Positions 18,981-54,477 of a DNA stretch of 64,000 nucleotides are shown piece by piece. Origin of the DNA: Spirochaetia bacterium (GTDB lineage Bacteria > Spirochaetota > Spirochaetia > SZUA-6 > Bin103); the NCBI GenBank assembly GCA_965203055.1, contig OZ241863.1, positions 896,001 to 960,000 on the forward strand, given 5' to 3'. A program made the position numbers and the translations under genes. The notes beneath the pieces were generated by a model. It did no database searches. It was not told the DNA's origin and worked only from the letters and a program-made list of their open reading frames with translations. Every line of letters starts with the position of its first letter. The first letter of the stretch is position 1.

Positions 18981-19464
18981 CGCGATCTCCCTCGACAGGT
19001 TGCACGGCATGACGCAGCGCCGCAAGGCGGAGAATCGAACGCGGCGGCGCCGCGGCGCCTGGGCGGCCGCCCGCGAGATCGGATGTTGGACGCTCCGCGG
19101 GCGAGCGTGGTAGAGTGCCGGCAGCCGGCAGCCGCCTACGCTGCCCGCAATCATACGCCGTTCCTGTTTCCGGCGGCGAGTTCGAGGAGGACTGCTCCAT
19201 GCACCTGACGGATACGCTGGCAGGCAACCGGGACGTGTTCCCGCTGCCGGCGCTGAAACGCATCCTACCCCCCCCCCTGATCGACGAGTACGACAACCTT
19301 ACCTGACGCCTCCCGGCGTTTCGGACGCGGACGCCAATCACGCCTCGCCGACGGCGGCCGCTTCTAGCTCTAGCGCAACTTCCTCTCCACGCTCCACGGC
19401 ACCGGGAACGGCTGCTTGGCACGGCTGTTCGTCACCGGCGGGCCGCCGACCGGCAGGGGTCCGC

Positions 19465-21633
19465 TTGCTCGCGCTGTTGATGGCCGCCGGTATCGCCCTG
19501 CTGGCGTGCACGCAAGCGGCGCGGCCGGCGGCAACGACCGGCTCCGGCGGCGCGGGCGCGGGGACCGGAGGGACCGGCGGCGGCGAGTCACCGGCCGCGC
19601 CGACCCCGACCCCGCAGCCGGCCGAGAAGAGCTGGCCGATCGGTGAAGATGCCTTCGATGACGAGGCGAACCTGGGCGCCACGACGATCCGCTCCGCGCC
19701 GTTTGCCTGGGACGGGATCACCGGCGACAAGGTGCGCGTGTCGATCGGCGGCCACGATCTGCCGTTCACGAGCACCACGAACGAGCCGGTCTTCGCGTCC
19801 GACATCAGCGGTGCGGAGTGGTCGGTTGCCGCCGAAGTCAGCGCGGGATCCATCGTGCTCGTGCTCACCGCCCCGGATCAGTCGGAAGACACCGATTTCG
19901 TCGAGTCGGTCGGTATTACGAACCCGGGCAGCGGCTACACCTCGGTCCCCACCATGTCCTTTTCAGCGGCGCCATCCGGCGGCACCACGGCAACCGGCAC
20001 CGCAGTGGCAAGCGGTCGCGTCGATTCCGTGTCGGTCTCGAATGCCGGCAGCGGCTACGCCTCGGTCCCGACCGTGACCTTCTCGGCGGCGCCGTCCGGC
20101 GGCACCACGGCGACCGGCGCCGTGACGGGCAGCGGCAGCGTCGATTCGGTGACGGTCTCGAACGGGGGGAGCGGCTACACCTCGGCCCCTGCCGTGGCCT
20201 TTTCGGGTGGCGGCGGCAGCGGCGCCGCGGCCACCGCGGCGCGTAGCGGTTTCGTAGATTCGGTGACGGTCACGAACGCCGGCAGCGGCTACACCTCGGC
20301 CCCCACGGTGTCCTTTACGGGTGGTGGGGGCAGCGGCGCCGCCGCCACCACGGCGCTGGACCAAGAGGTAGGGCCGGTAACGGTCACGGACGCCGGCAGC
20401 GGCTACACCTCGGTCCCTACGGTGTCGTTTTCGGGCGGCGGCGGCAGCGGCGCCGCCGCCACTGCGATCGGGCCGCTTGGGGTCGATTCGGTGACGGTCA
20501 CGAACGTCGGCGGCAGCTACACCTCGGTCCCTGCGGTGTCGTTTTCGGGTGGCGGCGGCAGCGGGGCCGCCGCTACTGCGATCGGGCCGCTTGGAGTCAA
20601 TTCCGTGTCCGTCTCGGCCGCCGGCAGCGGCTACACCTCGGCCCCCACCGTGGCCTTTTCGGCAGCGCCGTCCGGCGGCTTCACGGCGACCGGCACCGCG
20701 TCAGTGGTGAGCGGGCAGGTCGTGGGAGTGATCCTCTCGAACGTGGGGAGCGGCTACACCTCGGCCCCCACCGTGACCTTCTCGGGCGGCGGCGGCAGCG
20801 GCGCCGCCGCCACCGCAACGCTGCGTACCACCAGTGGCGTCCTCTCGGTGTCGGTCACGACCGCCGGCAGCGGCTACACGTCGGCCCCCGCCGTGGCGTT
20901 TTCGGGCGGCGGCGGCAGCGGAGCCAGCGCCACCGCGGCGCTGCGCACTACCAGCGGCATCGACGGAGTGACGGTCACGAACGGCGGCACCGGTTACGCG
21001 TCGGCCCCCACCGTGGCGTTTTCGGGCGGCGGCGGCAGCGGGGCCAGCGCCACCGCCGCGCTGAGCGTTACCAGTCGCATCGCCGGAGTAACGGTCACGA
21101 CCGCCGGCAGCGGCTACACCTCGGCCCCCACCGTGGCCTTTTCGGCAGCGCCGTCCGGCGGCACCACCGCCGCCGGCACCGCGGCGCTGGACTACGAGGT
21201 AGGGACAGTGACGGTCACGACCGCCGGCAGCGGCTACGCGTCGGCGCCCGCGGTGTCCTTTTCGGGCGGCGGCGGCAGCGGGGCCGTCGCCGCCGCGGTC
21301 ATGGACTACGGGGTCGGACCGGTGGCGGTCACGAACCCGGGGAGCGGCTACGCGTCGGCGCCGACGGTGACCTTTTCAGCCGCGCCGTCCGGCGGCACTA
21401 CGGCCGTGGGCAGCGCGGTCATGGACTACCGGGTACGGTCGGTGCGGATCACGAACCGGGGGAGCGGCTACGCGTCGGCGCCCACCGTGACCTTTTCGCC
21501 GGCGCCGGCCGGCGGCACCACCGCGACCGGCATCGCAACGCTGGCGAAGAGCGGCAACGATCAGAGCCAGAACCTGTATTGGGCGCGCCAAACGCTGGCA
21601 GGCAAGCAGCTTCTGGTGCAGGTAGGGGAGTGA
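19465..21633 (+). CDS. Lipoprotein with 14 [14 protein letters not shown] repeats (paralog 1)
   Basis: Lipobox IALLAC, shared N-domain, repeats at 19900-21543 and C-terminal [18 protein letters not shown]. Confidence 0.85.
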
Positions 21634-21636
21634 TGA

Positions 21637-23610
21637 ATGGTACCTCCCCCATGCAGGACGCTTCCGGCGCTGTTGCTGGCCGCCGGTATCGCCGCCCTGA
21701 TGGCGTGCGCGCCGGCGGCGCGTCCGTCCGCCGCGACTGCCGGCCCGGCCAACGGGGGAGCGGGGGAGCCAGGAGGTAAGCTACCACCGAGCGAGCCGCC
21801 GCCAACCCCGCAGCCGGCGGAGAAGCGCTGGACGATCAGCGCGGCTGACTTTGGTGACGGCGCGAACCTGTTGAGCGAAACGTCCAACCGTTCCGCGCCG
21901 TATGCCTGGGAGCGGATCACCGGCGAGGAGGTGCGCGTTTCGATTGGCGGAAACGAGCTGCCGTTCACGAGCACGAGCGCCAAGCCGGTCTTCGCGTCCG
22001 ATCTCTCCGGCGCGGAGTGGACGGTTGCCGCCGAGGTGCGGGCGGGGGCAGTGGAGCTGGTCCTCACCGCCCCGGATCAGTCGGGCGCCGCCGACACGGT
22101 TGAGTCGGTGACGATCACGAACCCGGGGCGCGGCTACACGGCGGACCCGACCGTGACCTTTGCGGCGCCGCCGTCCGGCGGCACCACGGCAACCGGCACT
22201 GCGGCGAGGTCCGGCTACGTCGATTCGGTGACGATTACGACCGCGGGGGACGGCTACCCGGCGGTTCCGACCGTGACGTTCGGGGCGCCGCCGTCCGGCG
22301 GCACTACGGCGAGCGGCGCCCCGGTGGGGTCCGGCTACGTCGATTCGGTGACGATTACGACCGCGGGGAGCGGTTACCCGGCGGTCCCCGCGGTGACGTT
22401 TTCGGCGGCGCCGTCCGGCGGCGCCACGGCAACCGGCTCCGCGTTGGGGTCCCGGCACGTCGATTCCGTGACGATCGGGACCGCCGGGAGCGGCTACCCG
22501 TCGGTCCCCACCGTGACCTTTTCGGGCGGAGGGGGCAGTGGCGCGGCCGGCACCGCGGTGCTGCAAAGCGGCGTAGCGTCGGTGACGCTCACGAACCGGG
22601 GGGCCTTCTATACCTCTGACCCAACCGTGACGTTTGGCGCTCCGCCGCCCGGCGGCACCACCGCGACCGGCACCGCAACGCGACGATCAGAAGTATGGAC
22701 CGTGTCGATGACGAACGGGGGGAGCGGTTACACCTCCGCTCCAACCGTGACGATTGGCGCTCCCCCGTCCGGTGGCACCCGGGCAACCGGCACCGCGGTG
22801 ATCAGTGGCGGTCAAGTGACTTCCGTCACCATCACGAACGGGGGGCGCGGCTACACCTCTGTCCCTTCGGTGACGTTTTCGGGAGGAGGAGGCAGCGGTG
22901 CGGCCGGCAGCGCGCAGGTGGGAACTGACCAACTGGATGGCGTGACGCTCGCGAATCCGGGGAGCGGCTACACGTCTGCCCCTTCCGTAACGTTTTCGGC
23001 CTCGTCGCTCCCCTCTCATACGGCCGCCGGCACCGCGGTGCTGCAAAGCGGCGTAGCGTCGGTGACGCTCACGAACGGAGGGAGCGGCTATACTTCGGCC
23101 CCGACCGTGACCTTTGCGGCAGCGCCAAGCGGCGGCGCCACGGCAGCCGGCACCGCGGTGCTGCGCTACGGCGTAGCGGAGGTGACGGTTACGGACGGAG
23201 GGAGCGGCTACACTTCGGCCCCGACCGTGACCTTTGCGGCGGCGCCGAGCGGCGGCGCCACGGCCGCCGGTACCGCGGTGCTGCGCTACGGCGTAGCGGA
23301 GGTGACGGTCACGGACGGAGGGAGCGGCTACACTTCGGCTCCGACCGTGACCTTTGCGGCGGCGCCGAGCGGCGGCACCACGGCCGCCGGCACCGCGGTG
23401 CTGCGCTACGGCGTAACGTCGGTGAGGGTCACGAACGGAGGGAGCGGTTACACCGCGGTCCCGACCGTGACGTTTTCGGCGCCGGCCAGCGGTACCCGTG
23501 CGACCGGCACGGCAAAGCTGGCCGAGGGCGGCTACGATCAATACCAGAACCTGTATTGGGCGCGCCAAACACTGGCAGGCAAGCAGCTTCTGGTGCAGTT
23601 GGCGGATTAG
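21637..23610 (+). CDS. Lipoprotein with 12 [14 protein letters not shown] repeats (paralog 2)
   Basis: Lipobox AALMAC, same N- and C-terminal segments, repeats at 22099-23520. Confidence 0.88.
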   Translation: MVPPPCRTLPALLLAAGIAALMACAPAARPSAATAGPANGGAGEPGGKLPPSEPPPTPQPAEKRWTISAADFGDGANLLSETSNRSAPYAWERITGEEVRVSIGGNELPFTSTSAKPVFASDLSGAEWTVAAEVRAGAVELVLTAPDQSGAADTVESVTITNPGRGYTADPTVTFAAPPSGGTTATGTAARSGYVDSVTITTAGDGYPAVPTVTFGAPPSGGTTASGAPVGSGYVDSVTITTAGSGYPAVPAVTFSAAPSGGATATGSALGSRHVDSVTIGTAGSGYPSVPTVTFSGGGGSGAAGTAVLQSGVASVTLTNRGAFYTSDPTVTFGAPPPGGTTATGTATRRSEVWTVSMTNGGSGYTSAPTVTIGAPPSGGTRATGTAVISGGQVTSVTITNGGRGYTSVPSVTFSGGGGSGAAGSAQVGTDQLDGVTLANPGSGYTSAPSVTFSASSLPSHTAAGTAVLQSGVASVTLTNGGSGYTSAPTVTFAAAPSGGATAAGTAVLRYGVAEVTVTDGGSGYTSAPTVTFAAAPSGGATAAGTAVLRYGVAEVTVTDGGSGYTSAPTVTFAAAPSGGTTAAGTAVLRYGVTSVRVTNGGSGYTAVPTVTFSAPASGTRATGTAKLAEGGYDQYQNLYWARQTLAGKQLLVQLAD

Positions 23611-23879: not shown

Positions 23880-25946
23880 ATGAGGAACCGAGTGCTCGCG
23901 CTCACCTGCTGGGCGCTGGGAATCGCGCTGGCGGCAAGCCCGCTGTACGCGGGCGGTACCGAAGAGGGAACGCAGGGCGGCGAGGCCGCCGCCATGGCCG
24001 CGACCGGCAGCGACATCGTCAAGGTGGTGGGCCGCTACACCGTGCGGGAGAGCTGGCTCAACCCGCCGACCGCGTCGCAGGTCGGCATCACCAGCTTCCG
24101 GGAGGCGCCGATGCTCGCCGCCATGGTGCAGGCCGGAGACCTGCCGCCGGTGGAGGATCGGCTGCCCGACGATCCGCTGGTGCTGGAGCCCTATGCGGAG
24201 GTGGGCAAGTACGGCGGCGAGCTGCGCGTGGCGCGCACCGGTCCCGGGGACTACGGCGACATGCACCGCGGAGCCAAGACCTTCCTGTTCCGCGCCGACC
24301 CGACGCTGAACGAAATCATCCCCTACGGCGCCAAGGGCTACGAGCTGTCCGCCGACCGCACCGTGCTCACCCTCTACCTGCGCGAGGGGATGAAGTGGTC
24401 GGACGGCATGCCGTTCACCACCGCCGACTTCATGTGGGTGTACGACAACCTGTTCCAGAATCCGGAGATTCCCAGCCAGCGCATCCGCTGGTCGCTGGGC
24501 GGTGAGCTGTCCAAGTGGGAGGCGGTCGACGACTACACGCTGCGCATGACCTATTCCGCGCCGCTGACGCCGACCTACCTGATCCCGCTGCTGAACTTCC
24601 ACCGCACCCGGCAGGGCAACATCTACACGCCCGTGCACTATGTCGAGCAGTTCCACGCCGACTTCAATCCGAAGGCCGAGGAGCTCGCCAAGGCGGAAGG
24701 ATTCGAAAACTGGATCGCTCACCTGAGCGCCCGCATGTCGACCGCGCCTACGGAGCCGTATCCGCAGCCGAAGCTGGCCGCGTGGGTGATGGAGAGCCGC
24801 GACTCGACCGGCAAGTTCAGCATGCGCAATCCCTACTTCTTCGCGGTGGACAGCGCCGGCAACCAGCTTCCCTACATCGATAGCCTGCGGGCGGTCTACT
24901 TCGCCGACAAGCAGGTGGCGATTCTGAACATGATGCAGGGCAAGGTGGACGTCGGCGGGCGCCTGATGGATCCCAGCAGCTTCGCCCTGTACAAGCAGAA
25001 CGAAGAGGTGGGCGGCTACAACTTGCGCGAATGGCAGGACACCAAGACCAGCCGCGTCATCTTCATGTCGAACATGAACCATCCCGATCCGGTCAAGGGG
25101 CCGGTCATCACTGACAAGCGGTTCCGGCAGGCGCTGTCGCTGGCGCTCAACCGGCCCGAGATCAACGAGTTCGTGTTCCTCGGTCTGGCCACGCCGGCGC
25201 AGTACACGGTCGATCCGGGCGCGGCGTTCTACGACGAGGCGTGGGCCCGGTCGTACGCCGATTACGACCCGGAAGGGGCCAAGGCCAAGCTGGACGAGAT
25301 GGGCATGACCGACCGTGACGGCGACGGCTGGCGCGAGGCGCCCGGCGGCGAGGAGTTCATCCTCAACATGCGCCCGCACACCAGCTCGGTGCTCGGCACC
25401 ATGGGCGACAACATCGCCGAGCTGACGCGCACCTACTGGGAGGAGATCGGCATCCGAATCAACTTCAAGCAGATCGCCCAGGAGTTGCAGTGGGAGCTCC
25501 TGCAGGCCAACGAACTGGACATTCTGGTCTGGGTCTCCGAGAATTACATGCCGAGCCGGCTGTCGTCGCCGCCGCCGTTCGGCCTCGACGTGATCATGTA
25601 CTCCACCGAGTGGCGCAAGTGGTACGCGCATCAGCGCTGGGTGGACGGCGGCCGCCAGGGCGACGAGCCGGTTATGGGCACCGAGCCGCCGGCCGAGTGG
25701 AAGCAGTGGCTGGACGACTGGCACGCCTGGGTCGATGCCCCGAACGCCGAGGAGTTCAACCGTCTCGGCGCCAGGGTGTGGGCGTTCCAGGCGGAGCAGC
25801 TGCCGGTCATCGGCACGGTGGCCAAGGCGGTGCGGCCGATCATCATCAACAACCGCATCAACAACGTGCCGGACGTGCTGCCGTTCTCGTTCGAGAGCTT
25901 CCTCTGGGTGCAGACCCTGCCGGCGCAGTGGTACATCGACGAGTAG
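23880..25946 (+). CDS. ABC transporter substrate-binding protein, family 5
   Basis: Signal peptide, EAPML..GDLPPVEDRLP, LREGMKWSDG.PFTTAD, NPYFFAVDSAGNQLPYID and FRQALSLALNR. Confidence 0.92.
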   Translation: MRNRVLALTCWALGIALAASPLYAGGTEEGTQGGEAAAMAATGSDIVKVVGRYTVRESWLNPPTASQVGITSFREAPMLAAMVQAGDLPPVEDRLPDDPLVLEPYAEVGKYGGELRVARTGPGDYGDMHRGAKTFLFRADPTLNEIIPYGAKGYELSADRTVLTLYLREGMKWSDGMPFTTADFMWVYDNLFQNPEIPSQRIRWSLGGELSKWEAVDDYTLRMTYSAPLTPTYLIPLLNFHRTRQGNIYTPVHYVEQFHADFNPKAEELAKAEGFENWIAHLSARMSTAPTEPYPQPKLAAWVMESRDSTGKFSMRNPYFFAVDSAGNQLPYIDSLRAVYFADKQVAILNMMQGKVDVGGRLMDPSSFALYKQNEEVGGYNLREWQDTKTSRVIFMSNMNHPDPVKGPVITDKRFRQALSLALNRPEINEFVFLGLATPAQYTVDPGAAFYDEAWARSYADYDPEGAKAKLDEMGMTDRDGDGWREAPGGEEFILNMRPHTSSVLGTMGDNIAELTRTYWEEIGIRINFKQIAQELQWELLQANELDILVWVSENYMPSRLSSPPPFGLDVIMYSTEWRKWYAHQRWVDGGRQGDEPVMGTEPPAEWKQWLDDWHAWVDAPNAEEFNRLGARVWAFQAEQLPVIGTVAKAVRPIIINNRINNVPDVLPFSFESFLWVQTLPAQWYIDE

Positions 25947-47724: not shown

Positions 47725-49074
47725 TCACCGGTCTACCGGCGCCTGCCGATCGTCGCCGGGGCGCCCGAATCCGGCGCCGACGTGGCGGTAGCGGTGATGG
47801 GCGGCGCACAGCAGGCGGAGATTGTTCGGCTCGGCGGCGGCGCCGCAGGCATACGGCACCACGTGATCGATCTGCAGCAGGTGTTGGGAGCCGCAGCGGC
47901 GCCCGCTGGTGCGGTCCACGTAGCGGCAGCGGCCCCGGTCGCGCCGCCAGATCTCGCGCTTGACCGCCGCCGGGATGGCGCGGCCGGTCAAGCCCGGCTT
48001 CGCTGCCGAAATCCGGGTCTGCGGCGGCGCAGCCGGCTGCGCGCACGCCGCAGCCGGCCGGTCGAGGCGCCGCGTCTTCGGCGCCGAAGTGGTGTCGCCC
48101 GCCGGCTTCGCTGCCGAAGTGTCCGGTCGGTCAGCGGCTTCCTCTCCCGGCTGAGCCGGCGCCTGAGCCGATACCTTCGCCGCCGAAGGATCGGCGCGGT
48201 CCGCGCTGGCGTCCTGCTTCGCTGCCGAGGCAGCGCCGCGAGCCGAGGCCGCCTGCGTCTTCGGCGCCGAAGTTTGCTCGGCGCCTTTGGCCGGCGCGGC
48301 GCGCCGCCCGCGCGGCGGCCGGGCCGGGTCGTGACGGTCGAGCCCTTCCCGCACCAGCCGCCCCATGAGCTGCCCCATCGTCAGGTGCGGGTCAACGTGG
48401 GACAGGAGGCCCTGGAGCCGCTCCAAGCCGCGCCGGCACTCATCGTCGATCACCGCCTTGAGTTCGCAGCGCCCGCCGCCCAGGGGCCGCACCCGATCCG
48501 CCGGCGCCGCCAGCTCCGGGTCCACCTCGGCCAGCAACTGCATCACCTCCCGGCTGCTCTTGCCGGACGCCTGCTCCACCAGCTCCCGCCGCGCCTCCGA
48601 GTCCAGCACCGGCGCCGGCTTCCGCTCCGCGGACCGCGGCGGCGCCGAACCCTCCTGCGACTGAGCGGCAGCCCCGAACCCGGCCCCGCGCGGCGCGCTA
48701 CGCGCCGCGCGTTCCTTCTTGCGCTCCTGCCGGTCGAAGGCGTTCTGCAACTGCGCCGCCGCGTTCAGCGTCATCGCGCCATTCTGCAGGCGCTCGCGCA
48801 CGCCGTCGACGTCGGCACAGAGCCGCATCGCCTTGATGCGCCGCCACGCTGCGGCGTCGCTGTAACCCAGCTCGCGCACCGCGTAATCGAACAGGCTCGA
48901 GAACCCGCGGCGCAGATACAGGCGGCGCTTCTGAATCTCGCGCAGGTGGTCGATGACGACCACTTCGAGATGGTGTTCGATGCCGGAAAGTTCCTTGGTC
49001 CGCTCCAGCAGACGGTCGTCTGAGAGGGCGGAAACGGTAGTGGTGACGGCCCCGTTGGAAGCATGATTGTTCAT
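47725..49074 (-). CDS. HNH endonuclease with long DUF222-like N-terminal region
   Basis: RRLYLRRGFSSLFDY..LGYS..AWRRI N-domain; C-terminal RDRGRC..C..LQIDHV...NNLRLLCAAHH. Confidence 0.85.
   Translation of the reverse strand: MNNHASNGAVTTTVSALSDDRLLERTKELSGIEHHLEVVVIDHLREIQKRRLYLRRGFSSLFDYAVRELGYSDAAAWRRIKAMRLCADVDGVRERLQNGAMTLNAAAQLQNAFDRQERKKERAARSAPRGAGFGAAAQSQEGSAPPRSAERKPAPVLDSEARRELVEQASGKSSREVMQLLAEVDPELAAPADRVRPLGGGRCELKAVIDDECRRGLERLQGLLSHVDPHLTMGQLMGRLVREGLDRHDPARPPRGRRAAPAKGAEQTSAPKTQAASARGAASAAKQDASADRADPSAAKVSAQAPAQPGEEAADRPDTSAAKPAGDTTSAPKTRRLDRPAAACAQPAAPPQTRISAAKPGLTGRAIPAAVKREIWRRDRGRCRYVDRTSGRRCGSQHLLQIDHVVPYACGAAAEPNNLRLLCAAHHRYRHVGAGFGRPGDDRQAPVDR
47998..48272. repeat. 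Six copies of a CTTCG-N4-CGAAG-like palindrome encoding SA(A/P)K motifs
   Basis: Copies at 47998, 48076, 48106, 48174, 48217 and 48259; two are the perfect 14-mer CTTCGGCGCCGAAG. Confidence 0.75.
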
Positions 49075-49080
49075 GACATA

Positions 49081-49109
49081 AGTATAATCATGGAACGTAT
49101 TTGAGTCAA
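49081..49109 (-). promoter_or_regulatory. Sigma70 promoter of the HNH gene (leaderless)
   Basis: TTGACT-N17-TATACT, then 6 nt to the ATG. Confidence 0.75.
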
Positions 49110-49181
49110 GTTTTTTCGTCCGGTACGATGCCACCTGCGGGCGTGACTCGGCGGCACATTTCCAAGCGGCTGGGCGTTCCG

Positions 49182-50153: not shown

Positions 50154-51869
50154 TTGGGTAGAGCATCGCTGGGATCGCTGTTGCTGGCCGCCGGCATCGC
50201 CGCGTTGATGGCGTGCGCGCCCGCGGCGCGCCCCTCCGCCGCGCCCGCCGCCCCGGCCCAAGGGGGGGGGGGTAATCCGCCGAGCGAGCCGCTACCGCCG
50301 CCCTCGCAGCCGGCCGAGAAGACCTGGACGATCAGCGCGGCTGACTTTGGTGACGATGAACCGGACCTGACGGGCGCCGCGTCCAGCCGTTCCGCGCCGT
50401 ATGCCTGGGAGCGGCTCACCGGCGGCAAGGTGCGCGTTTCGATCGGCGGACAGGAGCTGCCGTTCACGAGCACGAGCGCCAAGCCGGTCTTCGCGTCCGA
50501 CATCTCCGGCGCGGAGTGGACGGTTGCCGCCGAGGTCCGGGCAGGCGCAGTGGTGCTGGTGCTCACCGCCCAGGATCGGTTGGTCGTCGGCGACACGGTT
50601 GAATCGGTAGACATCACCAACCCGGGGAGCGGCTACGCGGCGGACCCGACCGTGACGTTTTCGGCGCCGCCGGCCGGTACCACCGCGACCGGCACCGCGG
50701 TGAGGCCCAGCGGCGTTGATTCGGTAGACATTACGACTGCCGGGACCGGCTACACGGCGGTTCCAACCGTGACGTTTTCGGCGCCGCCGTCCGGCGGCAC
50801 CACCGCAACCGGCGCCGCAGTGGGGTCCGGGTACGTCGATTCCGTGACGGTCGGGACTGCGGGGAGCGGCTACACTTCTGCCCCTTCCGTGACGTTTTCG
50901 AGCGGCGGCGGCAACAGCGCAGCCGGCACCGCGGTGCTGCAAAGCGGCGTAGCGTCAGTGACGATCACGAACCGGGGGGTCGGCTATACCTCTGATCCCA
51001 CCGTGACGTTTGGGGCGGCGCCGTCCGGCGGCACCACGGCGACCGGCACCGCAACGCGGCGCACCGAATTGGGTCAATTGCTGATTACGAACACGGGGAG
51101 CGGTTACACGTCTGCCCCGACCGTGACGATTGGCGCTCCGCCGGCCGGTGGCACCCAGGCAACCGCAACAGCAAGTATAAGTGGCGCCGGTACAGTGCAA
51201 GCCCTGAGCTGGGAGAACCGGGGGAGCGGCTACACCTCCGCCCCTTCCGTCACGTTGTCGGGCGGAGGGGGCAGCGGTGCGGCCGCGAGGGCGACGATAT
51301 TGACGACCAGGGTAGAGGAAGTGAGGATCACGAACCGGGGGAGCGGCTACACCTCTGCCCCAACCGTCACGTTTTCGGCGGCGCCGGGCGGCGGCACCAC
51401 GGCCGTCGGCACCGCGGTGCTGCAAAGCGGCGTAGCGTCGGTGATGGTCACGACCGGGGGAAGCGGCTACACCTCCGCCCCGACCGTGGCCTTTGGGGCA
51501 GCGCCGAGTAGCGGCGCCACGGCCGCCGGAACCGCGGTCATACGCTACGGCGTAGCGTCGGTGAGGTTCACCAACCGCGGGAGCGGCTACACGTCTGCCC
51601 CAACCGTGACGTTTTCGGCGGCGCCGGGCGGCGGCACCACGGCCGTCGGCACCGCGGTGCTGCAAAGCGGCATAGCGTCGGTAAGGGTCACCAACGGCGG
51701 AAGCGGCTACACGTCTGCCCCGACCGTGACGTTTTCGGCGCCAGCCAGCGGTACCCGCGCGACCGGCACGGCACGACTGGCGGAGAGCGGCTACGATCCA
51801 TACCAGAACCTGTATTGGGCGCGCCAAACGCTGGCGGGCAAGCCGCTTCTGGTGCGGCTGGCGGATTAG
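50154..51869 (+). CDS. Lipoprotein with 10 [14 protein letters not shown] repeats (paralog 3)
   Basis: GGAGG-N6-TTG start, lipobox AALMAC, shared N- and C-terminal segments, repeats at 50598-51779. Confidence 0.85.
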   Translation: MGRASLGSLLLAAGIAALMACAPAARPSAAPAAPAQGGGGNPPSEPLPPPSQPAEKTWTISAADFGDDEPDLTGAASSRSAPYAWERLTGGKVRVSIGGQELPFTSTSAKPVFASDISGAEWTVAAEVRAGAVVLVLTAQDRLVVGDTVESVDITNPGSGYAADPTVTFSAPPAGTTATGTAVRPSGVDSVDITTAGTGYTAVPTVTFSAPPSGGTTATGAAVGSGYVDSVTVGTAGSGYTSAPSVTFSSGGGNSAAGTAVLQSGVASVTITNRGVGYTSDPTVTFGAAPSGGTTATGTATRRTELGQLLITNTGSGYTSAPTVTIGAPPAGGTQATATASISGAGTVQALSWENRGSGYTSAPSVTLSGGGGSGAAARATILTTRVEEVRITNRGSGYTSAPTVTFSAAPGGGTTAVGTAVLQSGVASVMVTTGGSGYTSAPTVAFGAAPSSGATAAGTAVIRYGVASVRFTNRGSGYTSAPTVTFSAAPGGGTTAVGTAVLQSGIASVRVTNGGSGYTSAPTVTFSAPASGTRATGTARLAESGYDPYQNLYWARQTLAGKPLLVRLAD

Positions 51870-52098: not shown

Positions 52099-52620
52099 AT
52101 GGCGCTTAACGATGAACGGCAGCACGTGCTGCGCATGATCGAGGAAGGCAACGTCTCTCCCCGAGACGGGGCGCGGCTGCTGATGGCGCTTGGCGAGCTC
52201 GGCGACAGCGAGCCGCTGAGCGGCGAGCCGCAACAGGTGCTGCGCATGGTGGAGGAGTCCAAGATCTCCGTCGATGACGGCGCGCGGCTGCTCATCGCAC
52301 TGGGCGGAATCAACGACAACGAACCGGCGGCGCCGAGCGCGGCCCCGGCGGCGGCACCTGCTTCGGACCCGCGCGACGATGGGATGCTGGTACACATCAC
52401 CGTGAAGCGCAAGGACGGCAAGATGGTCAGACTGTCCATACCGTTGGAGGGCGCCCGCATGGTGTTGCCGCTGTTCGACCTGCCGCACGCCGCGCTGCTC
52501 GGCGAGCATGGCCGCGACGTCAACCGGATTCGAGACGCGCTGCGCTCAGGCGAGCCGGGTGAGATCATGGACTATCACGACGCGGAGTCCGGGCACAGCG
52601 TACACATCGCCATCGGCTGA
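52099..52620 (+). CDS. Protein with two SHOCT-like (YvlB/DUF2089-type) helical repeats
   Basis: VLRMIEEGNVSPRDGARLLMAL and VLRMVEESKISVDDGARLLIAL. Confidence 0.7.
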   Translation: MALNDERQHVLRMIEEGNVSPRDGARLLMALGELGDSEPLSGEPQQVLRMVEESKISVDDGARLLIALGGINDNEPAAPSAAPAAAPASDPRDDGMLVHITVKRKDGKMVRLSIPLEGARMVLPLFDLPHAALLGEHGRDVNRIRDALRSGEPGEIMDYHDAESGHSVHIAIG

Positions 52621-52721: not shown

Positions 52722-53345
52722 GTGCCTATCACCAGGAGCCAAGTCGATCGGAACAGCTTCAATCTCGCGTATCGGTTCCCTTATGAGCTTCGGATCAGCG
52801 ACTTCGATTCGGCGATGCAGGACGTTTATGACTTCTTCTTTGATGTCAATTCTCATTTGGTAGGCAAAGGGTTGCAGCGGCTCGACGACATGCTGCGGCC
52901 GGCAATCATGTCCGGCATGCTGTCCGACATGGTAACGGCGAGTCTGGCGAAGCACTCTCGGGTGCTTACGGAGAACACCTATTTCAACGGCCACCCCGAC
53001 CTCGTTGTACGGGGCGTCTACGCTCAAAACGCTGTCAAGGCCGGTAGCCAGGGCGTCGAGATCAAGACGACTAGAAAGAAGGGAGGCGCCGTCGACACGC
53101 ACGGAGCCCGTGATCAGTGGATGTGTGTGTTCGTCTACGATATAGACAGCGAAACGGAACCGGCGATCGACAGAAATCCGATGACGTTTACTGAAGTCTA
53201 TCTGGCCAACGTAACGGTCAATGACTTCAGAAGGAATCCAAGAGGCGAACTCGGGACACGGACCGCTACGTTGCACCGGCACGGGGTGGAGAAGCTGCGC
53301 GCGAATTGGCTCTATCGCGTACCGGGTGTCATGCTGGGCCGTTGA
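52722..53345 (+). CDS. Putative type II restriction endonuclease (PD-(D/E)xK)
   Basis: GHPDL..GVEIKTT motif; AT-richer; convergent overlap with an MTase. Confidence 0.65.
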   Translation: MPITRSQVDRNSFNLAYRFPYELRISDFDSAMQDVYDFFFDVNSHLVGKGLQRLDDMLRPAIMSGMLSDMVTASLAKHSRVLTENTYFNGHPDLVVRGVYAQNAVKAGSQGVEIKTTRKKGGAVDTHGARDQWMCVFVYDIDSETEPAIDRNPMTFTEVYLANVTVNDFRRNPRGELGTRTATLHRHGVEKLRANWLYRVPGVMLGR

Positions 53346-54477
53346 CCGGAAGCTCGGCCAGGAGCGGCATCGCTCTGGCGGCCATCTCGAAATAGTGATG
53401 GTCCTTTTCGACGCCCACCGAGGCATAGCCCACGGCCTGCGCCGCCGCGAGCGTCGATCCCGCTCCGGCGAAGGGATCGACCACCACGCCTTCGCCGAGG
53501 GGCAGCACGCTGCGCACGAGTTGCCGGAGAAACGCCTGCGGCTTCAGACTGGGGTGAGGAGCGATGCCCCTCTCCCGCTTTCCGGTCGGGGCCGACCTGA
53601 TGACGTCGCCGAACGGCGACCGGTCCGACGGCCGGCGAAATCCTCCGGTACGCCATTTCCGCAGGTTGTCCTGAACCCTGCCTTCGACCGGTTTGCGAAA
53701 CAGTACCCACGGTTCCCACATCGACCTCGGCAGCACGCTGACGCCTTCGAACTCCTCGTGGGCGCCCTTGGGGCGATCCCCGCCGCGCATGGTCATGACC
53801 AGCCTGATGATCTCGCCCCTTCGTTGCAGCCCGCCGCCCGCCAAGGCCGCGGACACGATGTGCGACAGCAGCGGACTGGAGGCGACCACGACATTCGCCC
53901 CCGGTACCAGCTTCGGGATCAGAAGGCGCGTCCAGATGAAGAAGAACTCATGGAGATACTTCTTCTGCGAATCGGTCAGCGTGGTGAATCGCGGCAGCGG
54001 AGATCGCGCGTGACCGTCGAACGATGGCGGCAGTCTCCAAACTCCTCCCCGGCCTGCTCTCAGCTTCGACTGTTCTTTCGGCGTGTACTCCTGAAGCCCG
54101 TACGGCGGGTCGGTGACCACCGCATGGATCGTATTGTCTTCTCGCTCATCCAACCAGTCGAAGCAATCGCCGTGAACCAGCGTAGCCTTGCCGTGGTGGT
54201 ATGGTTCCTGCCACAGGGACAGCCCCGGCAGCAGGCGCTGCACGCCGCTTGCGGATTCCGTTCTCAACCGATAGACGCCGCGCCGTTCTTTGACGAAGAG
54301 CGAAGGAGTGTTCAGGCGCAGAAACGACCGAACGGAGGACTCGGGTGTCGGGCCGTTTACTTTGGCGACCCGCTGCGCGACCTGCTTGGCTGACAGGCCC
54401 TCGGAGGTGAGGCTCAGGATATCGAGAATCGCGTCTCGTACCTGGCCGGGAGCGTATCTGAGAGCCTGCTCACTCAT
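53329..54477 (-). CDS. Beta-class N4-C/N6-A DNA methyltransferase with N-terminal winged-helix-like extension
   Basis: HGDC, VTDPPY, HPSLKP and VVDPFAGAGST; N-terminal VRDAILDIL..SVRSFL..RGVYRL. Confidence 0.9.
   Translation of the reverse strand: MSEQALRYAPGQVRDAILDILSLTSEGLSAKQVAQRVAKVNGPTPESSVRSFLRLNTPSLFVKERRGVYRLRTESASGVQRLLPGLSLWQEPYHHGKATLVHGDCFDWLDEREDNTIHAVVTDPPYGLQEYTPKEQSKLRAGRGGVWRLPPSFDGHARSPLPRFTTLTDSQKKYLHEFFFIWTRLLIPKLVPGANVVVASSPLLSHIVSAALAGGGLQRRGEIIRLVMTMRGGDRPKGAHEEFEGVSVLPRSMWEPWVLFRKPVEGRVQDNLRKWRTGGFRRPSDRSPFGDVIRSAPTGKRERGIAPHPSLKPQAFLRQLVRSVLPLGEGVVVDPFAGAGSTLAAAQAVGYASVGVEKDHHYFEMAARAMPLLAELPVNGPA

Follow-up and report, generated by a model that had tools for sequence, protein, structure and literature searches.

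The question raised by this locus is why the protein repeats of three paralogous lipoprotein genes should occur in even numbers, with a single turn at the midpoint of each array. The genes, designated P1 (722 aa, positions 19465..21633), P2 (657 aa, 21637..23610) and P3 (571 aa, 50154..51869), were read as open reading frames (ORFs), all on the + strand, in a stretch of 64,000 nt from a Spirochaetia bacterium (assembly GCA_965203055.1, contig OZ241863.1, 896,001-960,000). This whole stretch is referred to as the window, and positions are those of the window. A first-pass annotation of the DNA had proposed that repeat i of each protein folds with repeat n+1-i, the array forming a two-chain rod inserted in a lipid-anchored domain. 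The analyses described here, which include structural modelling, indicate that a fold-back (hairpin) repeat rod probably explains the family to which P1, P2 and P3 belong. At the level of the family, several independent lines of computation support such a hairpin stalk; for the genes of the window the support comes through homology. The repeat counts, their parity, the zero-repeat forms, the mirrored junction lengths and the addition of one repeat per arm derive from sequence and comparison; the hairpin and the arm-arm contacts derive from prediction.

A motif scan and a repeat hidden Markov model (HMM) agree on 14 repeats in P1 (seven out, seven back), 12 in P2 (six and six) and 10 in P3 (five and five), the numbers first proposed, with units found to be 38-43 aa in length. 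Tandem Repeats Finder likewise reports the arrays, as 114/120-nt periods. By these three methods the arrays comprise residues 144-697 of P1 (19894..21555), 153-633 of P2 (22093..23535) and 147-547 of P3 (50592..51794), and no further copies were found in the window. The single midpoint turns lie where they had been placed. That of P1, VSGQ at junction 7/8 (20707..20718), is assigned by homology to modelled turns, and its junction has 5 residues compared with the usual 4; that of P2, ISGGQ at junction 6/7 (22801..22815), was identified from the motif scan and junction lengths; and that of P3, ISGAGT at junction 5/6 (51177..51194), coincides with a strand break in an AlphaFold2 model. The linkers are as the annotation listed them. 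Read outward from the centre, they are PLG, PLG, DQE, SGF, SGS and SGR opposite RTTSG, RTTSG, SVTSR, DYE, DYG and DYR in P1; RSE, QSG, SRH, SGY and SGY opposite GTDQ, QSG, RYG, RYG and RYG in P2; and RTE, QSG, SGY and PSG opposite LTTR, QSG, RYG and QSG in P3. One face of each strand, as read from the sequence, is rich in Val, Phe and Ala.

In the proposed fold, the last strand of one repeat would continue into the first strand of the next, with a short strand between these long strands. The chain would run outward through n/2 repeats, reverse once in a β-hairpin and then run back, with repeat i lying antiparallel on repeat n+1-i and linker i against linker n-i. The product would be a rod with two arms and n/2 levels, whose tip would lie well away from the lipid-anchored base domain; each level would measure approximately 25-30 Å, if half of a 17-residue strand is taken as the rise. 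Even numbers would be expected in viable proteins because each repeat needs a partner and because both ends of the array return to the base domain. The same partner rule implies that a change in length would require one change in each arm.

Repeats were counted by iterated HMM in all 90 proteins possessing both the base domain and the tail. Even counts were obtained for 77 of them (2 repeats in 5 proteins, 4 in 29, 6 in 22, 8 in 7, 10 in 3, 12 in 5, 14 in 5 and 30 in 1) and odd counts for 13 (1 repeat in 2 proteins, 3 in 8, 5 in 2 and 7 in 1). Six of the odd counts (P0016-P0019, P0124 and P0139) occur in a divergent group whose other members count as 4. Four units, one of them degenerate, can be recognised by eye in P0016 and P0019, and we infer that the remaining four proteins are likewise four-unit forms undercounted by the HMM; with this correction, approximately 83 of the 90 are even. 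At genome-record loci, all 21 complete genes are even (4, 6, 8, 10, 12, 14 and 30 repeats), and 12 repeats are also present in a 22nd gene, which carries a frameshift in repeat 8. It is apparent that at least seven different even counts occur. The first-pass annotation had expected that odd counts would be infrequent and that models would be free of sequential i/i+1 domains. Odd counts amount to 7 of 90 after correction and to 0 of 21 in the genome records, and no model with sequential domains was obtained.

The two ends of the array also bear on the question. Each protein has the same order of parts: a signal peptide, a Pro/Thr/Gly-rich tether of approximately 35-45 residues, a small, β-rich base (N-) domain of about 95 aa, the array and a conserved tail of 24 aa. 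Family alignments bear out the statement that the array lies between a conserved N-domain and a conserved tail, the N-domain and the tail core ([17 protein letters not shown]) being conserved throughout the family. The base domain comprises residues 52-143 in P1 (19618..19893, by family conservation), residues 60-152 in P2 (21814..22092, the segment that served as the query for relatives) and residues 53-146 in P3 (50310..50591, by conservation, with a predicted local distance difference test score (pLDDT) of ~90 in the AlphaFold2 model). The tail of P1 (…[21 protein letters not shown]; 21556..21630), judged from zero-repeat homologues and from the helix and strand in the models of relatives, would return to the base domain; that of P2 (23536..23607) was located by motif scan, and that of P3 (51795..51866) is a helix and a strand in its model. 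In two distant relatives with zero repeats, P0086 and P0060, a tail-like segment directly follows the base domain. The tail alignment score is 25 in both, a value equalled by 7 and 46 of 1000 shuffled tails, respectively. Both of the AlphaFold2 models that were made show the tail as a helix and a strand, with pLDDT of 86-93 in P3 (helix 497-508 and strand 512-517, mature numbering) and about 56-70 in the homologue P0028. Because the zero-repeat homologues join the tail straight to the base domain, the array appears, from sequence comparison, to be an insertion that splits the tail from the rest of the base domain, with the ends of the array meeting. This agrees with the earlier proposal of a rod inserted in a lipid-anchored domain.

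The lipid anchor is indicated by the N-termini. The signal peptides end in LLAC in P1 (Cys15; 19465..19509) and in LMAC in P2 (Cys24; 21637..21708) and P3 (Cys21; 50154..50216), as read from the translations. In each case the tetrapeptide follows a hydrophobic stretch and is one that we take to be a lipobox. Most of the homologues have the same feature. P1, P2 and P3 are predicted on this basis to be bacterial lipoproteins and substrates of signal peptidase II. The likely start codon of P3 is TTG at 50154, with GGAGG upstream, and homologues begin MGRASL. P2 starts 3 nt downstream of the stop codon of P1.

An AlphaFold2 model was made of P0028, a homologue with six repeats, from 14 aligned sequences of the same architecture. 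The pLDDT of its array is 87-93, and its predicted template modelling score (pTM) of 0.44 is low because of approximately 100 disordered N-terminal residues. Unbroken 17-residue strands extend over junctions 1/2, 2/3, 4/5 and 5/6. The lone break is at junction 3/4, where strand 274-279, turn 280-285 (ISGFGG) and strand 286-293 form a β-hairpin. The two arms (residues 157-283 and 284-403) were then predicted as separate chains, with the base domain and tail excluded. The interaction score, ipSAE, which expresses the model's own confidence, was 0.72 in each of three runs, compared with 0.00 for the best of three controls; of 157 solved complexes, 116 attain the mark applied to this score, as do 2 of 215 mismatched pairs, a calibration that holds roughly here, an alignment of our own having been used. 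The runs agreed in at least 99% of contacts, with a partner pLDDT of at least 91 and approximately 580 contacts spanning both chains. The contacts are antiparallel and mirrored about residue ~282, in the turn, pairing repeats 1/6, 2/5 and 3/4. Among those listed, residues 240-242 contact 323-321, 205-207 contact 359-357, 221-223 contact 344-342, 260-263 contact 306-304 and 273-274 contact 293-295, with i+j of 563-568; the YYY linkers are stacked on each other (240-242 with 323-321). Exceptions are 240 and 241 with 298 (i+j 538-539), which are cross contacts of Y298, the Tyr of a GAGY motif. The predicted contacts between mirror repeats are those of P0028, the one protein whose arms were folded in this way.

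The model of P3 has a mean pLDDT of 76 and a pTM of 0.43. It breaks at junction 5/6 (ISGAGT), between strand 285-290 and strand 296-303 (mature numbering). Strands are continuous at junctions 2, 3, 6 and 7, and short breaks occur at the mirror pair 1 and 9. This model is consistent with the hairpin but incomplete. The postulated pairing of repeat i with repeat n+1-i is supported by the P0028 arm test and by a midpoint hairpin in the models of both P3 and P0028.

These strands and contacts bear directly on the possibility that the proteins are ordinary head-to-tail arrays, i.e. beads of single- or two-repeat domains with their ends far apart, the even numbers arising from two-repeat duplications and the tail being an independent C-terminal element. 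We consider that explanation unlikely. Tandem pairs need turns at junctions 1/2 and 5/6 of P0028 and at 3 and 7 of P3, yet the models have unbroken strands at all four places (17 residues long in P0028), and the P0028 arms touch along their whole chains, whereas tandem pairs predict contacts of repeats 3/4 only. In proteins of 4, 8 and 12 repeats the central turn falls at an even-numbered junction, which tandem pairs cannot accommodate, and the zero-repeat homologues link tail and base domain. In addition, a repeat-by-repeat alignment shows P2 to equal P3 plus one repeat per arm, and P1 to equal P2 plus one per arm; the repeats that P2 has beyond those of P3 are two single ones in separate places, not one two-repeat block. 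What speaks for a head-to-tail array is, in part, the DNA, in which adjacent repeats are 71-77% identical, mirror partners 68-73% and other pairs 68-70%, as tandem duplication predicts; since adjacent repeats are the most alike, the arrays would seem to grow by ordinary local duplication and conversion. The low pTM of both models, the presence of an SG motif at every odd junction of P3, which would fit tandem pairs, and the phage profiles considered below, whose ~75-80 matched positions correspond to two adjacent repeats and whose best stretch lies off-centre in 15 of 20 proteins, are on the same side.

The arm test has a bearing on a second alternative, that the arrays are extended and that two or more chains are zipped antiparallel or arm-swapped, the hairpin being an artefact of modelling one chain. 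Since the arms were supplied as two separate chains, the test does not distinguish intramolecular from intermolecular pairing, and the Val/Phe/Ala-rich strand face needs a partner of some kind. A dimer, on the other hand, sets no parity, yet 21 of 21 genome-record genes are even. The single-chain models contain a tight central β-hairpin, the base domain and tail are contiguous in the zero-repeat forms, which argues that the ends meet within one chain, and the arms are equal in nearly all of the proteins read. Pairing between chains is therefore given a low probability, slightly below that of the head-to-tail array.

Additional support for the hairpin comes from mirror signals in the sequences. 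The linkers of P0028 are, in order, ISSS, AYYY, the centre, AYYY and ISSS, and direct duplication cannot yield a palindromic order of this kind. When the register of P0028 is applied to P1 and P2, the Gly of the outbound SGx linkers would stand opposite the Tyr of the inbound DYx/RYG linkers. The similarity of mirror linkers, pooled over 21 family members of which several are close relatives, was 1007, compared with 909.6 ± 40.6 after shuffling, a value reached in 13 of 2000 shuffles. Junction lengths are mirrored as well: the summed difference between mirrored junctions of 24 proteins was 68, compared with 90.3 ± 7.9 after shuffling, and 0.0036 of 5000 shuffles did as well. In the relative L010, junctions j1 and j11 are both 2 residues short; in L017, lengths of 13 and 2 stand opposite 11 and 4, and in L006 a length of 10 stands opposite 7. 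The central (n/2) junction exceeds 4 residues in 23 of the 24 proteins, compared with 47 of 190 other junctions; apart from those of P3 and P0028, the turns of the family members were placed by homology and by inspection. In the 30-repeat relative L020, also read by eye, the outbound alternation of SLTLDx and LxAGx is in phase with the inbound alternation of VTMxGG and LSxG about junction 15/16.

Several observations weigh against the hairpin rod. Seven proteins appear to be truly odd: P0015 (7 repeats), P0041 and P0057 (5), P0097 and P0145 (3), and P0140 and P0119 (1). All seven were predicted from metagenome assemblies, on contigs of at most 100 kb in the five with a listed size (none is listed for P0041 and P0057). 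Three of them have close even-numbered siblings by base-domain identity: P0121 and P0122, each with 4 repeats, for P0119 (97%); P0014, with 8, for P0015 (94%); and P0118, with 2, for P0140 (92%). Collapsed assemblies might explain the odd counts, as might genuine deletion variants; for the pairs P0118/P0140 (2 and 1 repeats) and P0119/P0121 (1 and 4), the collapse of arrays in short-read assemblies is likely. The parity counts, moreover, overstate the evidence, because the relatives share ancestry and are not independent trials. There is also an exception to the equality of the arms, turn positions being read by eye: in L004 (3914-5575, +), a 10-repeat paralogue from a related genome, the orthologue of the central pair is at junction 4/5, giving four repeats out and six back. 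This pair reads RRTE, repeat 4, IGGGQVL, repeat 5, LRTSR, and the even count is kept while symmetry about the motif is lost. The explanation would be either a slipped tip or local pairing of two inbound repeats. Repeat 3 of L004 resembles a hybrid of repeats 3 and 4 of P3, and there is one additional repeat of the RYG type in its inbound arm. The first-pass statement that length would change only by paired outbound and inbound duplications stands in so far as P1, P2 and P3 differ by one repeat per arm; the word 'only' was too strong, given the 4+6 arrangement of L004 and the few odd counts.

Further reservations of the same kind concern the models and the linkers. Repeats 4 and 9 of P3, which are not mirror partners, have a pLDDT below 50; the low confidence there is probably due to a mixed alignment consisting mostly of gaps. 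With these values and a pTM of 0.43, no protein of the window has the nested fold modelled over its full length, and the topology is drawn from the contacts listed for a single homologue, whose chain was cut at the presumed turn. An SGG-type motif is not by itself a marker of the turn, because it recurs at several junctions of L047, a protein of a related genome. Within P1, P2 and P3 taken singly, the mirror linkers are not significant (shuffle fractions of 0.26, 0.27 and 0.07), and mirror repeats are hardly more alike in sequence than other pairs. It follows from the latter that what is symmetric is the architecture and the class of linker and not the sequence of the repeats.

The non-significance of the mirror linkers within single proteins would also be expected if the symmetry were a by-product of repeat turnover, with gene conversion and local duplication acting towards the two ends of the array, and with predictions that are over-confident for idealised repeats. 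Local concerted evolution that is unequal between arms is indeed seen in P2, where the DNA of repeats 9-11 is 90-97% identical and that of repeats 2-3 is 85% identical; these values indicate that the two arms are not homogenised together. Turnover would nevertheless leave unexplained the parity maintained across counts from 2 to 30, the mirroring of junction lengths (with the 2-residue deletions of L010 as a paired example), the palindromic linkers of P0028, which direct duplication cannot produce, and an arm-arm score of 0.72 compared with 0.00 for the control. We regard it as very improbable, and the least probable of the three alternatives to the hairpin rod.

Relatives of these proteins were sought with the P2 base domain as the query. 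Protein searches returned 24 relatives of similar length and 67 shorter ones, and a library of 1.84 billion proteins gave 70 cluster representatives, 38 of them with E values of 1e-10 or lower; the weakest matches among the 70 are unrelated β-propeller repeats. A search for relatives longer than 1150 aa found none, but this blank is uninformative because a relative of 1422 aa with 30 repeats is known at a genome locus. In the genome collection, the base domain is restricted to records of Spirochaetia metagenome-assembled genomes (MAGs). Judged by sequence, P1, P2 and P3 are paralogues in a lipoprotein family without a name, which these searches detected in uncultured Spirochaetia alone. None of the Pfam or NCBIfam families scored above its curated cut-off for any of the three, the best being FIT1_2 (17.9 bits, cut-off 26.1) and TraA (16, cut-off 22.6). 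The open-access literature searched yielded neither an account of the family nor a parity rule for a nested β repeat.

In one chromosome-level Spirochaetia record, 10 loci together contain at least 12 genes of the family. This related record matches the window with 97.75% identity over 4445 nt at P1-P2 and with 94% identity at P3, and its orthologues have 14, 12 and 10 repeats, as in the window. Some other repeat genes depart from this pattern. In the related genome, the orthologues of P1 and P2 are followed by a third tandem paralogue (L007:6266-8302, +) with at least 10 repeats up to the point where the locus ends. L047 (+, ORF from offset 3580, 493 aa), in the related genome, has the same repeats and the lipobox LLAC, without the base domain and tail, and the junction VSGGAVTGV occurs in it several times. 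L013:3833-5810 (+), also from the related genome, is a 12-repeat paralogue with a frameshift within repeat 8 and is either a pseudogene or the result of a sequencing error. L020:3740-8005 (+), from another Spirochaetia MAG, encodes 1422 aa and 30 repeats; a turn-like VPSGQ follows repeat 15, and both tip repeats contain insertions.

The repeat alone is far more widespread. It is found in large and giant proteins of Planctomycetota, Acidobacteriota, Verrucomicrobiota, Bacteroidota, Actinomycetota and archaea, and is common in phage virion, tail-fibre and baseplate families (PHROG 701, 460, 5342, 19630, 708 and others). The window proteins match PHROG profiles with whole-protein E values of 1e-47 to 1e-97 and 3-8 matched stretches each, and the 30-repeat relative matches with E values down to 1e-117. 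The profiles cover approximately 75-80 positions, i.e. two repeats. The best phrog_5342 stretch was tried as a locator of the turn and rejected: it is central in P1, P2, P3, L004 and L010 and lies elsewhere in the other 15 of 20 proteins. In BFVD, 54 matches with E values of 0.001 or lower were obtained to models of cyanophage and uncultured phage proteins, and local superpositions cover 78-84 columns with a root-mean-square deviation of 1.0-2.1 Å and 35-47% identity. On sequence grounds the repeat is assigned to a phage-type class of two-repeat modules, which does not make P1, P2 and P3 phage proteins. The module is the same repeat, but in phage proteins it occurs as an insertion or a run in large structural proteins, without a lipoprotein signal, base domain or tail; and no virion genes were seen around P1-P2 or around P3. 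Fold searches of the PDB with both models gave nothing usable (best E values of 0.25 and 0.026, template modelling scores of at most 0.10), a sequence search of the PDB gave only chance-level matches to pilins and antibodies, and the ESM Atlas held no usable match for P3 (best 0.76) or for the base domain.

Out-and-back chains are known from other systems. Flagellin and hook proteins are nested hairpins in which the chain runs out and back, levels are built from N- and C-proximal segments, and the tip carries variable insertions. Their levels are distinct domains with no parity rule, whereas those of the P1-P3 family would be copies of one repeat; flagellar chains did appear in the PDB fold search, at non-significant E values of 0.35-0.36. 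In the streptococcal antigen I/II proteins (SspB, SpaP and AspA), the A and P repeat regions pair as a stalk that projects the V region away from the anchor (PMC3178794). The likeness is an out-and-back stalk in which an N-terminal repeat region pairs with a C-terminal one; the arms there differ from each other, an Ala-rich α-helix against a Pro-rich polyproline helix, with the head at the tip. In the P1-P3 family, by contrast, both arms would consist of the same β repeat, the tip would be a bare hairpin and the globular domain would be at the base, by the anchor. No tip domain, no Ala- or Pro-rich arms and no Pfam match were found in P1, P2 or P3 that would place them with antigen I/II. Periscope proteins are surface proteins that vary in length through repeat number (PMC8201768). 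They have rod-like arrays in which copy number sets protein length, as in the present family, but these arrays are linear, can have any integer count and lie between an anchor and a functional head. The P1-P3 array would return to its start, has an even count and projects no head domain. What is known already is the hairpin stalk and the abundance of the repeat in phages; what is new is the use of the same repeat in both arms, the globular domain on the base side and the parity rule.

Tandem repeats normally change by single units, and a fold with distant partners would add a rule, namely even numbers and equal arms. If this is true, protein repeats would gain a covariation so far familiar from RNA stems. 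We hold it to be an evenly balanced proposition that the family represents an RNA-stem-like class of repeat, with nested copies, a parity constraint, compensating insertions and deletions in each arm and 1-15 levels, in which genes with odd counts are unstable intermediates. The family also offers a natural length series (2, 4, 6, 8, 10, 12, 14 and 30 repeats) for relating rod length to copy number, and possibly a scaffold for designed stiff β rods of set length. It provides a fold hypothesis for a repeat that is abundant in phage tail-fibre, baseplate and giant surface proteins and for which no Pfam entry or solved structure was found. Parity could be used as a check on assemblies of genes with such repeats. 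As to function, our guess, a tentative one, is a stiff envelope-associated spacer, at the surface or in the periplasm, or a multivalent binding rod, with a multigene family supplying several lengths. This guess is prompted by the lipid anchor, the long tether, the many paralogues of differing length and the fact that phage fibres and giant surface proteins use the repeat too.

The surroundings of the three genes were also read. Arg/Gly-rich ORFs of 130-290 aa overlap the arrays on the minus strand and in other frames (19338-23568); these are spurious and not genes, a side effect of the repeats and of the 69% G+C content of the window. The neighbouring genes are unrelated and of housekeeping or mobile/defence type. 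P1 and P2 are flanked on one side by a DNA alkylation repair gene (PF08713; 18186-19154, -) and on the other by a gene for a family-5 extracellular solute-binding protein of the ATP-binding cassette (ABC) type, with a lipoprotein-like signal (23880-25946, +). The latter stands at the place that the third tandem paralogue occupies in L007. Near P3 are genes for a protein with an HNH-endonuclease domain (47725-49134, -) and a SHOCT-like protein (52099-52620, +). These are accompanied by an unassigned 207-aa ORF (52722-53345, +) and an N6/N4 DNA methylase gene (53329-54477, -), which overlap tail to tail and may form a restriction-modification pair.

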